Of a DNA stretch of 64,000 nt, positions 6,194 through 60,722 are shown piece after piece. The number at the start of each line of letters is the position of its first letter. The stretch's first letter is position 1. Both the position numbers and the translations under genes were made by a program. Source of the DNA: Eledone cirrhosa. Taxonomy: Eukaryota. Location: assembly GCA_964016885.1 (NCBI GenBank), contig OZ024750.1, forward strand, positions 15,190,001-15,254,000. Direction: 5' to 3'. The notes beneath the pieces are model-generated. The model was not told the DNA's origin. It saw only the letters and a list, made by a program, of their open reading frames with translations, and ran no database searches.

Positions 6194-6224
<31 letters not shown>

Positions 6225-6227
6225 CAT

Positions 6228-6400
6228 AACAAAGGAATTGTGGTAAGGAACCAGATGGGCCATAGCGCACCAGAATACTCAATACTTAGGGTAGTAGAGT
6301 GGGAAATAGGAAAAAGTATGACCCCGACGGCAGAGCTCAAGCCGTTTCGACGGCTATTTCTGGACTCCAGAAATAGCCGTCGGGGTCATACTTTTTCCTA
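6228..6400. mobile_element. Fold-back family A (putative Penelope-like 3' end with half-HHR), copy 1
   Basis: TA-flanked. Shared tail ...GTGGTAAGGAACCAG...TACTCAATACTTAGGGTAGTAG; internal hairpin GACGGCTATTTCTGG-ACT-CCAGAAATAGCCGTC; deletion in the right arm. Confidence 0.65.
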
Positions 6401-9115: not shown

Positions 9116-9147
<32 letters not shown>

Positions 9148-9149
<2 letters not shown>

Positions 9150-9292
9150 CAAAGAAAGTGTGGTAAGATACCAGGGGAACCATAACGCACCAGAGTACTC
9201 GATACTTAGGGTAGTAGAGTGGGTAATAGGAAAAGAGTCAGGAACGTGAGTTCGGATCTAGCTGTCGAAACGGGGTCCCGATTGTTTTCCCA
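9148..9292. mobile_element. Fold-back family A, copy 2 (rearranged)
   Basis: Same tail as 6228 and 38140-38222, plus a CTAGCTGTCGAAACGG remnant; TA-flanked. Confidence 0.6.
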
Positions 9293-26659: not shown

Positions 26660-28994
26660 AAATAAAGGATTATGAGTTCATGCAATTGACTTATGTTTCG
26701 TCACTATATATATATATATATATATGAATATATGACTATATGACTGGGTGCGTAAAATATCTGCAATGACATGTTCACATACAGATAGTTTTGTCGGAGT
26801 GTACATCTGTGTGTATGAATGTACGTATGTGTATTTGTGTATATAAATATATGTATATTTTTTATATATAATTACAAGGATAATTTTTGCATCAGGGTAT
26901 CTTCTATCAAGTGAAGTGAACCTACTATTGGCGCAAGTCCATAATGGTCATCCTTGAATAGAATATGGTGGTAATGAAGAATTGAAGACACGTGTGATTT
27001 TATAACAAACATATTTTCTCATGTAACTTAAAGTCTGCCGATACATAGTTTTAGTTGTAAGTATATGTATGTACCCGTAACCCCTAATGGAGTCGTAGCG
27101 GTGCCGCAGTGATATTTCTTGGATGTTTTATATACCTGCCAGAGCCCGTTTCCTTTCTAGGTATGAACAAAGCAGATTTCTTCTAGAGGGGGCTTGCAAA
27201 AGAGAATGGTAAAGAGAAAGTGAGAAATAGCTAGAGAGGAACAAATCACCCTCCGTACTTAACTGGCAATTTTTTTGTTGACTTCAGAAGAATGAGAGAC
27301 AAAGTTAACTTCGGCGGGATTTGAACTTAGAACAGAGTCGGAACAAATACAGCCAAGCACTCTATCCAATGTTCTAGTAGCCTTGCCAATTCGTAGCCTA
27401 GAGTTCGATACATAACAGTTCTTATATATAAAATCTCTATTTTGTATTGCATACTTTCATTTGTTTTTTAATATATATACTGCGCAATTAATGTAATATA
27501 CTGGGCTAGAGCATGTCTCTATGCGGCCTTACATTACTAATTCTACTGACCTTTTTCCTAAAAGTGGTATAAAAGATTTGTGTGTACAGTAGCAGCAGCG
27601 GTTCAGCCGTAAGACCATTACATACTCGTGTGCCTCACTAGAGATTTTTAGTATGTTAGAAAAGAAGGACCAGTGTTTGAGACGTAGACTTAGTTACATC
27701 CAAAAAGGTCTTCAGTGTTATTCATGTTTAAGGAGGTGCGATACAATATTTTCTTGATATGAGCACGAGCAGTGTTTGTGTTTCTGGTCGTTGAACGAAA
27801 CACGATTAGCGTAACCATGAGTTCGCAATACAATTTGCAAATGTATGGAATTCATAATTTAGTATTTCTGTTGCCGTTTCTAAACTAAGCATTTCTTGAA
27901 CGTTTATTGATGTTCCTTTGTTTTATGAATATAATTAAATTCTCTTGACATATCTACTATTGAATTATATACATAACTAATGATAAACAGTCACACATCT
28001 TGAATCCATTCGTAATCTACACCACAAAACTAAACCCACCAGTGTAAAAGTTTTCAAAGCTTCTTAAATGAGGATCTATGATAAATCAAACTTTGTTGAT
28101 GGTTAAGTGACCATCACAGTTTCAAATTTCGGGAATTAATTGTTCAATTAAAGCTGCTCATAGTTTCATAAATGTGCTTATTGATATTTTTGCTGAGTAA
28201 ATAAAATTGAGAAACAAGATGAATGTGTATTTGAATTTAAAATTTCAGAAAACAAGATAAACTTACCGATTCCATATATATGAAATAGAATATTATACTG
28301 GATTATCTAAATGTATCTCAGGCATATTAATTATAATAGGATTTCGAACTAATTATCAAAAGCACACGTCTTGAGAGAATTAATCACCCTTGTGCGCGTA
28401 AAATAATCCCCTGACTATCTTTAAAATATTCAAAGCAACTATACTTTCTCGAATGACTATATTAAATTGCATAGTTTTAATAAATTTAGATCTTTTACAT
28501 GTTTTTTCATTTGTAATGATATTTATATTTTATTTGGTAATTTTATGTTGATTTTAAATATTCAATTTTAAACAGAATTGTGTTACTATTTTGCTATGGT
28601 AATACGTTCGTAATACAAGTTTGCAAATACAAGGATTCATAATTATTATTTCTTTTGCCTTTTCCCTACTATGCATAATTAGAATAATATTTAAATCACC
28701 TTTACAATACCAAAGAATGAAAACAAACGATAGTTTATCGATCTTATATCTTTGTGGTTTAAAAGACACTCAAATTCTCTTGACAATATTGCATCAAATT
28801 AAAATATTTCGCCTAATTGGTTTGTTGACAAGACTCAAAACATCTATTTCATTAGAAATTGGAATAAATGCTCTGAAATAGCGATATATATGTGAATATA
28901 GACATAGAATATTCGAAAATATTCTGTATGTTTATAATAAACATTTTGAAGACCTAATCGCTATAGAATAGAATACGTCACGTATTACAATTAG

Positions 28995-29083
28995 ATTCTC
29001 GATAAAAGCAAGGGAAGTAATCTACGCGTTTCATTCTCGTTAGAAATCATCAGGACTACATATCCAGTGCTTTTATCGAGAAT
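28995..29083 (-). ncRNA. Type I hammerhead ribozyme, inverted unit
   Basis: Reverse complement of 29233-29321. Confidence 0.85.
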
Positions 29084-29232
29084 GACACAGCTAGAGACTT
29101 ATGTCTATATTCACATATATATCGCTATTTCAGAGCATTTATTCCAATTTCTAATTTCTGCCGGACCGGCAACCGCTCTTTCAAACCAGTTCCTGTACAC
29201 AGCTAAGTATTCTATAAGTCTCTAGCTGTGTC

Positions 29233-29321
29233 ATTCTCGATAAAAGCACTGGATATGTAGTCCTGATGATTTCTAACGAGAATGAAACGCGTAGATTACT
29301 TCCCTTGCTTTTATCGAGAAT
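29233..29321 (+). ncRNA. Type I hammerhead ribozyme, unit 1
   Basis: GTAGTC-CTGATGA-T TTCT AACG AGAA T-GAAA-CGCG-TA|GATTAC. Stem I GTAGTC/GATTAC is extended past an internal loop by a perfect 16-bp helix ATTCTCGATAAAAGCA/TGCTTTTATCGAGAAT. Minimal palindromic stem III (ACGCGT). Predicted cleavage after A29293. Confidence 0.85.
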
Positions 29322-29542
29322 CTAATTGTAATACGTGACGTATTCTATTCTATAGCGATTAGGTCTTCAAAATGTTTATTATAAACATACAGAATATTTT
29401 CGAATATTCTATGTCTATATTCACATATATATCGCTATTTCAGAGCATTTATTCCAATTTCTAATTTCTGCCGGACCGGCAACCGCTCTTTCAAACCAGT
29501 TCCTGTACACAGCTAAGTATTCTATAAGTCTCTAGCTGTGTC

Positions 29543-29631
29543 ATTCTCGATAAAAGCACTGGATATGTAGTCCTGATGATTTCTAACGAGAATGAAACGC
29601 GTAGATTACTTCCCTTGCTTTTATCGAGAAT
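29543..29631 (+). ncRNA. Type I hammerhead ribozyme, unit 2
   Basis: Same sequence as 29233-29321 shifted by +310. Confidence 0.85.
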
Positions 29632-29852
29632 CTAATTGTAATACGTGACGTATTCTATTCTATAGCGATTAGGTCTTCAAAATGTTTATTATAAACATAC
29701 AGAATATTTTCGAATATTCTATGTCTATATTCACATATATATCGCTATTTCAGAGCATTTATTCCAATTTCTAATTTCTGCCGGACCGGCAACCGCTCTT
29801 TCAAACCAGTTCCTGTACACAGCTAAGTATTCTATAAGTCTCTAGCTGTGTC

Positions 29853-29941
29853 ATTCTCGATAAAAGCACTGGATATGTAGTCCTGATGATTTCTAACGAG
29901 AATGAAACGCGTAGATTACTTCCCTTGCTTTTATCGAGAAT
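29853..29941 (+). ncRNA. Type I hammerhead ribozyme, unit 3
   Basis: Same sequence as 29233-29321 shifted by +620. Confidence 0.85.
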
Positions 29942-30162
29942 CTAATTGTAATACGTGACGTATTCTATTCTATAGCGATTAGGTCTTCAAAATGTTTATT
30001 ATAAACATACAGAATATTTTCGAATATTCTATGTCTATATTCACATATATATCGCTATTTCAGAGCATTTATTCCAATTTCTAATTTCTGCCGGACCGGC
30101 AACCGCTCTTTCAAACCAGTTCCTGTACACAGCTAAGTATTCTATAAGTCTCTAGCTGTGTC

Positions 30163-30251
30163 ATTCTCGATAAAAGCACTGGATATGTAGTCCTGATGAT
30201 TTCTAACGAGAATGAAACGCGTAGATTACTTCCCTTGCTTTTATCGAGAAT
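30163..30251 (+). ncRNA. Type I hammerhead ribozyme, unit 4
   Basis: Same sequence as 29233-29321 shifted by +930. Confidence 0.85.
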
Positions 30252-30711
30252 CTAATTGTAATACGTGACGTATTCTATTCTATAGCGATTAGGTCTTCAA
30301 AATGTTTATTATAAACATACAGAATATTTTCGAATATTCTATGTCTATATTCATCTATTTCATTATTCAACTCAGCCTTATACAATTATTTCTCCATATA
30401 TGTTATATTGCATCAATGAAATACAGTCGTTAAATTTTTTTATATCGCAAATGCAGACCAATACCGCCACTGCTTACATGTTTAAACATGTCTGTTACTA
30501 GCTCACTGTACATTTGATAGCAAGTGCGTCGATGAAGTGTTTACAATTTAGTTTAAAACATACTGCAGGAACATCGTTCGAAAAACACAAAATTTTCGTT
30601 TACTTGCCAGTATAAATCGACGAAAGATACACCTATACGAACCCCCATATATATATATATATGGGGGGGGGGGCGGTTTACCGTTACGCATATATTTATA
30701 TTTACTTTGGA

Positions 30712-31011: not shown

Positions 31012-31315
<304 letters not shown>

Positions 31316-32060
31316 ATATATATATATACACTCGGGGACCGTCTGCTATCGATATAACACCAAATTAGCAGGCTTTCCCCGAATCGAATCAGTCCACTAT
31401 TTTCCATTCTCTACCTTCGATTTTTTCTATCGCCTATCTTCTATTCTATATTTAGGTTCATCCTGTTACATAATTTTATAATTTGGTAATACCGCTACTT
31501 GGACAGTTGTTGCAAGAGTATCACTTTACCCGGTTTATCAATAATGCTATATTATGTAGTTTTGTAGAACTGATCAAATTTGAACTATTTTCTAATCTTA
31601 GATCGGAAGCCTAGTATTTGAAATAAAATTTTGCAATGATATACAAGGTCAGATATCCGCAGGAGGGATGTCAGCAATGTTAGCCTTGGCATTTATAATT
31701 ACTTACAGAGCTTTAGGTTTATGTTATTCCTGTAATTTATGAGTAGTGAAGGAATGTTGGACAATCTTTTTCATTGGTATGAGTAATGATGAATGGTGTT
31801 GAAGAATATGTCATCCTGTCATCATAAATTGATGCTTAGATCTCGGTTCATATAATCGGTGCACGTCTGGAATAAGATATCTAAGTTGCCCGTGGCGGCT
31901 GCTGTCTACGTGCTAAAAATTAAGAATGATGTATAACAGCATTTGCAGAGAAGTATATGTAGTTAAGACTAACGCCGTGTCGATCATGTAATACAACGTG
32001 GTTTGTAAGGATCCGACTCACTTATGGTCATTGGATCGTTTATCACTTTACTATTCATTA

Positions 32061-36425: not shown

Positions 36426-36524
36426 TAGGAAAATGTTTAACCCCGTTTCGACGGTTATTTCTGCACTCGAGAAATAGCCGTCGAAACGGCTTGAGCTCTG
36501 CCGTCGGAGTTAAACATTTTCCTA
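36426..36524. mobile_element. Fold-back family A, copy 4 (palindrome only)
   Basis: TAGGAAAATGTTTAAC...GTTAAACATTTTCCTA with core GAAATAGCCGTCGAAACGGCTTGAGCTCTGCCGTCGG; in (TA)n. Confidence 0.65.
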
Positions 36525-37919: not shown

Positions 37920-38222
<303 letters not shown>

Positions 38223-38387
38223 TATATATATATATATATATATTTATATATACTTAGCTTTAAATGTGTTGAATTCGAACTCGAGATACTATTTACCTTA
38301 TGATCGAATAAATTGTTACCTGATTTGATTTAATCTCACTTGTCTTTTAAAAACACAACTTTTATCTCGAACGCTTGATATAATATA

Positions 38388-60080: not shown

Positions 60081-60596
60081 TACCTCATTTTACTAGTCTC
60101 AAGAACGCGTCTACACGACGTGAGAAAGAATCCCAAAAGGCGGAGGGGGAGATAGTCACGCGATATAACGGTCGAGAAACAGAGCTAAGCCTCTTATAAC
60201 CCCGAAGAAAATACCACGGAGGCGGAGGGGGTATTTATATCGAGGCCGTAGAAGAGGTGGTGAAGAAGGCGAGAAGTATGAGTAATGGAAGCTTTCCAGC
60301 TGTCCCCACACTTCAAAGATTGCTCGACCAGAGGGAGTTATTAACAATATATTTAGAAACACACAGATACATGCGGACACACATATATCTTCTCTCTTCA
60401 TAATGTATTTTTAACTCTGATACTGGTTCAGTCTAGTTCAACTGAATTAGTCTGTCCCAGTCATTCATTGAGCAACATCGGTGAAGTTGGCACCCTTAAC
60501 TCACAGTTGGGTGCGGATGCATTCATGTATATATGTGTGTGTCCGCATGTATCTGTGTGTTTCTAAATATATTATAAATATATATATATATATATA

Positions 60597-60722
60597 ACGA
60601 AGGAAATGTGGTAAGGAACTAGGTGGACCATAACGCACCAAAGTACTCAATACTTAGGGTAGTAGAGTGGGTAATAGGAACCAGTAAGACCCCGACGGCT
60701 GAGTTCAAGCCGTTTCGACGGA
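60597..60722 (-). mobile_element. Fold-back family A, copy 6 (single arm + tail)
   Basis: Near-identical to the reverse complement of 31201-31315, with a small indel. Confidence 0.65.

Follow-up and report, generated by a model that had tools for sequence, protein, structure and literature searches.

How does a non-coding 310-bp repeat, which bears a hammerhead ribozyme motif in every unit, come to be inserted into a genome as a tandem array joined to an inverted copy of itself? The question is raised by a locus of Eledone cirrhosa (assembly GCA_964016885.1) that lies in a 64,000-nucleotide stretch of contig OZ024750.1 (positions 15,190,001 to 15,254,000, forward strand), referred to below as the window. 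By the sequence-level definition, this locus is one insertion of a young non-coding family of non-long terminal repeat (non-LTR) retrozymes, a known class whose insertion structure here ties the 310-bp repeat directly to the machinery of Penelope-like elements (PLEs). It is highly probable that a Penelope-like reverse transcriptase (RT)-endonuclease moves the repeat by two-primer insertion. The fuller proposal, in which the RT-endonuclease inserts the retrozyme and usually copies a probably circular RNA monomer, is one that we favour slightly.

In the assembly sequence, the forward arm of the locus is a perfect period-310 run of 1254 bp (4.05 units) with no mismatches, and the inverted partial unit is complementary to it throughout. 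The 14-bp target-site duplication (TSD) has exactly two occurrences in the window, one at each edge of the locus. The locus has no coding frame, as the longest stretch from stop to stop is 76 aa and the longest from an ATG is 47 aa, and it contains no open reading frame (ORF) for the RT or the GIY-YIG endonuclease of an autonomous PLE. The four identical units, the inverted partial unit, the duplication and the lack of coding capacity, all of which an earlier note on this DNA had described, were thus borne out. The GC content of the unit is 107/310 (34.5%), and the unit folds on itself (z = -3.9).

A degenerate hammerhead core identified 15,222 hammerhead-bearing units in the 3.0-Gb genome, and the exact core of the window occurred 4225 times, with 0 matches in the reversed controls for both. 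The number of loci, estimated from the 15,222 units, is about 2,000. We read 101 loci, which comprise the window locus, the first 10 arrays on contig C1 and 90 more arrays on C1 picked by one end; of these, 86 had two complete arms, 9 had a single arm and 6 were cut short by a gap or by the limits of the extracted sequence. The first L073 (a duplicate of L072), L182 (no array) and L001-L030 (parts of L031/L032) were excluded before counting. The median arm lengths were 1468 and 936 bp, both arms exceeded one unit in 69 of the 86 two-armed loci, and the longest exceeded 27 units. Unit-specific variants numbered 150 in 301 kb, and this low load indicates that the family is young. These results agree with the claim of a young non-LTR retrozyme family with many dispersed copies, each with its own TSD, which was readable in 22 loci. 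In addition, no sampled array adjoined an RT/GIY-YIG ORF as its terminal repeat.

For the class assignment, a retrozyme repeat was taken as a multi-copy tandem repeat of 150-450 bp with a GC content below 50%, which describes the 310-bp family. The metazoan non-LTR retrozymes of coral, mussel and axolotl (Cervera and de la Peña 2020, PMC7229834) are likewise tandem repeats of 170-400 bp with a type I hammerhead per unit, a GC content below 50%, no ORF, a TSD of more than 4 bp and a self-paired fold. For those retrozymes circles and cleavage have been demonstrated, whereas for the 310-bp family they are predicted from sequence. The two-armed palindromes, the two fixed end sites and the (TA)n target described below also set the present family apart from the account in the main text of that paper, where the word "inverted" is absent.

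The first hammerhead of the forward arm has an extended stem I (16 bp and a bulged stem) and the core CUGAUGA/GAAA/GUA. The CUGAUGA cores lie at 29263, 29573, 29883 and 30193 on the forward strand and at 29053-29047 on the reverse strand, the last being the fifth hammerhead that had been placed in the inverted arm. As read from the sequence, helix II comprises 4 bp above a U·U, and a palindromic CGCG loop closes a helix III of a single base pair. Position 10.1-11.1 is U·U in the window variant and A-U in the 286A haplotype (22/88 loci). The claim of a type I hammerhead in each unit was accordingly confirmed for the core, the stems and the predicted cuts, but not for a complete canonical fold, because the stable helix III and the paired helix II base of a monomer-competent type I hammerhead are not present.

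The Rfam search proposed in the earlier note gave no hammerhead match, either at the gathering threshold or at E<=10, and the hammerhead call therefore rests on the core nucleotides, the stems and covariation in sister families. Two older sister families in the genome showed compensatory changes in stems I and II, with the long helix I and helix II both kept (two misplaced alignment rows, L191:1116-1222 and L041:6140-6237, were disregarded). The fixed variants of the family are located at N7, in loop II, at wobble positions of helix I and at the U·U. None of the 33 fixed variants fell on the 11 core positions, which is not significant as a sign of purifying selection (P = 0.30). A relaxed hammerhead pattern with a shorter stem II yielded 17 matches, by look only deletion variants of the 310-bp family.

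The ribozyme of the unit unites features of two axolotl ribozymes: a 1-bp helix III and palindromic loop, as in HHR_Amex1, and a U·U at the foot of helix II, as in HHR_Amex2. In axolotl, ribozymes with these weaknesses show poor cleavage in monomers and good cleavage in dimers (PMC7229834), and by this analogy the unit ribozyme would be a weak, dimer-type form that cleaves poorly as a monomer and better as a dimer. Self-cleavage into exactly 310-nt monomers, as had been predicted, is thus doubtful in its efficiency unless the ribozyme is dimeric, and uncut multimers were the template of at least three loci, described below. No hammerhead core is present on the antisense strand of the unit, and the label "viroid-like" goes too far.

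The ends of the arrays follow a fixed rule. With phase 0 set at the first base after the predicted hammerhead cut, each of the 86 complete two-armed loci paired one outer end at a site A (phase ~153-171) with one at a site B (~117-138), at an offset of 24-47 nt (median 35). The same pairing was seen in 10/10 two-armed loci chosen without regard to their ends. Across the genome, breaks after phase 164 were counted in 1100 units and breaks after phase 129 in 1273, a figure that takes in some internal point variants; at the predicted cut, the subfamily of the window showed three breaks, two of which are point changes. The array ends are thus unrelated to the cleavage site, as had been noticed at the window locus, whereas the expectation that copies would show different circular permutations failed, since the outer ends are fixed at two sites ~35 nt apart.

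Both flanks were TA-rich in 80 of the 86 two-armed loci, the window locus being among the exceptions; the patterns used for selecting loci made no demand for TA flanks. The TSD was 12-27 bp in the 22 readable loci and 12-15 bp in 13 of them. At the inner junction, microhomology was present in 45/86 loci, and the inner-end phases of the two arms were unrelated to each other. One inner junction (L041:5518-5695) is doubled by a local duplication of ~170 bp.

Features of PLEs include a truncated copy in inverted orientation, a tail of 30-40 bp at one end and insertion into (TA)n targets (PMC8557442). A PLE of anole nicks and extends both strands, and its tail is set by the two internal sites at which RT begins (PMC11167929). 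The inverted arrangement with such a tail at one end only holds for 86/86 two-armed loci (median offset 35 nt), and the bias to AT-rich/(TA)n targets for 80/86. The fixed A+B tail and the (TA)n targets indicate that the insertions carry the PLE signature, with two internal RT start sites. The segment 3' of site A is a candidate binding site for the PLE protein, by analogy with the anole element (PMC11167929).

Among the closest known systems are Poseidon PAc of anole (Frangieh et al. 2024, PMC11167929) and Neptune/Naiad (Craig et al. 2021, PMC8557442), which share the inverted 5'-truncated copy, the 30-40-bp tail, the two internal RT start sites downstream of the hammerhead and the AT-rich/(TA)n targets. 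Unlike these elements, the present family has no RT/endonuclease ORF, the whole element is the 310-bp repeat, and the arms reach at least 27 units. The non-autonomous Chlamys elements, such as MRC1 (PMC8557442), are also non-coding dependants of PLEs with multicopy head-to-tail insertions. They are similar to the 3' ends of their helpers, and their clade is described there as mostly without canonical hammerheads, whereas the 310-bp family has a hammerhead in every unit and no helper homology was found for it. The vertebrate retrozymes of Li, Clavereau and Pollet (bioRxiv 10.64898/2026.07.22.740005) have similarly been proposed to be non-autonomous PLE derivatives moved by PLE machinery. That proposal is argued from co-occurrence and the phylogeny of pseudo-long terminal repeats (pLTRs) rather than from insertion architecture; in its main text "tail" is absent and "inverted" occurs only in a reference.

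Autonomous PLEs that end in the same way are present in the genome. There are 10,597 candidate GIY-YIG loci, and the 150 that were scored contained at least 7 RT families. In the L153 family, an open frame of 1096 aa has RT and GIY-YIG matches and a CX4CX2C linker, and its many copies are 97-100% identical over the RT. Its own A/B ends are 37 nt apart and lie in TA repeats, and the L151 family is alike with a wider offset. The suggestion that PLE machinery is the likely mover was in this way strengthened by the A+B ends, the tail, the (TA)n targets and these elements. Several PLE ends (L194:2600-2660 and the 3' regions of L151, L169 and L170) contain, by eye, atypical hammerhead-like cores with UUGANAA replacing CUGANGA. 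Hammerhead-like matches near GIY-YIG loci, considered as helper-linked, turned out to be independent insertions.

The two arms appear to have been primed separately on the same RNA. In L070, L093 and L180, unit-specific variants occur at the same unit index in both arms when counted from the outer ends, indicating that the two cDNAs shared their starting unit, whether on one template or on identical ones. In L180 the arms differ sixfold in length (925 and 5473 bp), and the variants are still in register from the outer ends. The arms thus look like two separately primed cDNAs and not fold-back copies.

These observations can be arranged in the following scheme. Transcripts of an array would be cut by the hammerhead, likely as dimers, and some of the monomers would be ligated into circles. 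The PLE protein would bind the RNA and nick both strands of an AT-rich target ~12-15 bp apart. Each nicked 3' end would then prime RT at A or B, ~35 nt apart on the same RNA, and each cDNA would extend over less than 1 to more than 25 units and stop at no fixed phase. Microhomology would finally join the two cDNAs, and the product would be a lopsided palindrome that is tailed on one side. Uncut multimers would be the template in the smaller share of events. Rolling-circle RT by a PLE is itself an already proposed model (PMC7761336; bioRxiv 10.64898/2026.07.22.740005). That each insertion is the fossil of a Penelope RT pair rolling round a ribozyme-made 310-nt RNA circle from two fixed starts is a tentative reading, which we put a little below an even chance.

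The haplotypes bear on whether the template was monomeric. Among 88 loci, 33 haplotypes were found, 24 of them once, and most are fixed across both arms; 17 variants are fixed in a single locus across all covering units. In L186, for example, a rare haplotype is fixed in both arms, up to 24 units. The inner ends lay within 5 nt of the cut in 5/172 cases, against 6.1 expected, with no pile at any one phase; their phases are not uniform (Kolmogorov-Smirnov p = 0.002), yet no phase is avoided. The haplotype fixation and the lack of a pile of inner ends at the cut favour a monomeric, probably circular, template.

The chief alternative retains two-primer insertion by a PLE but has mostly long, uncut linear transcripts of arrays as templates; the arrays would later be lengthened and homogenised by unequal exchange, and the hammerhead would play a minor role. 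At least three loci (L070, L093 and L180) were indeed copied from multimer templates, and the chimeras in register in these loci are what a linear template would leave. The ribozyme is weak and minimal, the long arrays contain periodic variants, local amplification has been proposed for retrozymes (10.64898/2026.07.22.740005), and the anole PLE inserts in vitro without a need for hammerhead cleavage (PMC11167929). However, only 3 loci share variants in register, with 63 covered variants unshared, whereas a rough 11-40 such variants would be expected from the copying of ordinary arrays as linear RNA, given 80 kb of arm overlap and an assumed source load of 0.14-0.5 per kb. Rare haplotypes are in many cases fixed across the two arms, the inner ends do not pile up at the cut or start site, no arm clearly reads through a source junction, and foreign inserts are found at only 2/86 junctions. 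We therefore regard a mainly linear template as rather unlikely.

Several points weigh against a circular template moved by a PLE. L180 requires a chimeric template of at least 18 units, which means that long uncut RNAs can be copied, and the main substrate of the anole enzyme is unprocessed RNA, which it prefers in vitro (PMC11167929). The long arrays L050, L051, L074 and L210 were shuffled after insertion, so that homogenisation at the DNA level exists. The "private" fixed variants may come from unsampled source loci, as ~100 of the ~2,000 loci were read, all but one on C1 and 90 picked on one end. The two arms of L060 differ at a single site, as they would after a switch or a change of template. 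Finally, a comparison with the ends of L151, L153, L197 and L169, which covered families among the top GIY-YIG matches, revealed no autonomous PLE clearly homologous in sequence to the unit. The scores of the four ends were reached by 39, 218, 2 and 490 of 500 shuffles, and the best is an AT-rich match with the ends out of register. A TGTCT-N35-TTCCAAT spacing common to the unit and the L153 family was spotted post hoc and is not significant. With these points considered, and given PLE two-primer insertion, the circle is probably the main template. The proposal of rolling-circle RT on a 310-nt circular RNA is thus favoured by the haplotypes and junctions, although it is limited by the multimer templates of three loci.

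A second alternative is that the RT jumps from end to end on cleaved linear monomers, or that a host polymerase first makes multimeric RNA from the circle in a viroid-like manner. This would account for the homogeneous long arms, and the pieces of other repeats at two junctions, together with the switch in L060, show that template switching occurs. In contrast, 959 unit junctions at the cut site contained no indels or added bases, which speaks against end-to-end jumping; the inner ends are not in excess at the cut, and the antisense strand lacks a hammerhead core. Either variant is improbable.

For the inverted arm, fold-back self-priming, as proposed for PLE inverted repeats (PMC3846280), or L1-type twin priming on one linear poly(A) RNA could be considered, and the microhomology at 45/86 junctions is compatible with both. 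Against fold-back, the inner-end phases of the arms are unrelated and the variants align from the outer ends, not from the junction; against twin priming, poly(A) is absent and the other arm does not continue from the inversion point. This explanation is largely refuted by the register data, and we give it very little credence. The 100% identity of the units might suggest an artefact of assembly, or a plain satellite whose tandem copies multiplied at the DNA level only, but this is scarcely credible in view of dispersed loci with differing unit counts, locus-specific haplotypes, TSDs and fixed end rules.

Table 1. Features of the retrozyme locus, in window coordinates
Feature	Positions	Strand	Remarks
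Forward arm, 4.05 identical 310-bp units	29100..30353	+	Outer end at site B, 129 nt past the predicted cut
Inverted arm, 252 nt, 0.81 unit	28851..29102	-	100% complementary; outer end at site A, phase 171
Left TSD, 14 bp	28841..28854	+	Last 4 nt common with the start of the inverted arm (priming microhomology)
Right TSD, 14 bp	30352..30365	+	First 2 nt common with the end of the forward arm
Inner junction of the arms	29100..29102	.	3-nt microhomology
Tail segment between putative RT start sites B (~129) and A (~164-171)	29423..29465	+	In every unit
Segment 3' of site A	29466..29524	+	Kept in a sister retrozyme family
Hammerhead 1, type I	29233..29321	+	Predicted cut after 29293; hairpin z = -5.2
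Hammerhead 2	29543..29631	+	From core position; predicted cut after 29603
Hammerhead 3	29853..29941	+	From core position; predicted cut after 29913
Hammerhead 4	30163..30251	+	From core position; predicted cut after 30223
Fifth hammerhead hairpin, in the inverted arm	28995..29083	-	From core position and phase arithmetic; predicted cut between 29023/29022

Other repeats with related features were also observed. Another abundant palindrome in (TA)n, also lopsided and extended further on one side than on the other, lies at 31133-31325 of the window and has relatives at 6218-6382, 9138-9232, 36443-36510, 38045-38231 and 60586-60721; in appearance it resembles the end of a further PLE-type element. 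The inner junction of L099 holds a 54-nt piece of this palindrome, and that of L081 (1441-1712) a 272-bp GC-rich foreign piece with no match among the other sampled loci. Older sister retrozyme families (L151:332-705, L191:1111-1626, L105:2449-2864 and L165:9008-9103) have the region around sites A/B and the palindromic layout in common with the 310-bp family and differ in their hammerheads, one of them having a 265-bp unit with a UUGAUAA core. The ~490-bp tandem repeat at L161:7818-9901, which has the same hammerhead build (U·U, 4-bp helix II and palindromic loop III) and an unrelated sequence, is probably another retrozyme family.

Among locus-fixed variants, A>G changes numbered 10 and T>C changes 4, compared with 8 and 20 among unit-specific variants (Fisher p = 0.019, post hoc). 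Variants lie at unit positions 275, 19, 1, 258 and others; 275A>G, within a UAG in helix I, recurs on several haplotypes, and one arm of L060 turns from A to G inward. The A>G bias of the locus-fixed variants may reflect adenosine-to-inosine editing of the RNA template. Twenty public sequencing runs (X1-X20, 18 organism labels) contain 65-100% of the words of the unit, trace DNA, related species and RNA being indistinguishable as their source. Runs X2 and X9 each contain the unit as one closed 340-nt contig without the flank of the window locus, X2 with the window haplotype and X9 with a minority haplotype. Two Hi-C runs under the label of the run richest in these words yielded no reads on the window. 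No RNA run was listed as containing the unit, a result that speaks neither for nor against its expression.

The main texts of the retrozyme and PLE literature searched did not contain the A+B end rule, the palindromic arrays or the haplotype test, and such structures may appear in the supplements. The helper of animal retrozymes has been said not to be deducible from the retrozyme sequence (PMC7761336), and the origin of the tandem and inverted repeats of PLEs has been called open (PMC8557442). In E. cirrhosa, both questions leave a countable trace in ~2,000 young loci, and the perfect palindromes of the family amount to ~4.7 Mb of the genome. The genome also contains young PLEs whose open frames are long. 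With a 310-nt RNA and a single protein, the two questions could be addressed in vitro. If the proposed scheme is true, the loci would be direct genomic evidence that the circles of animal retrozymes are the template of transposition, and that the inverted repeats of PLEs arise from two target-primed cDNAs on one RNA.

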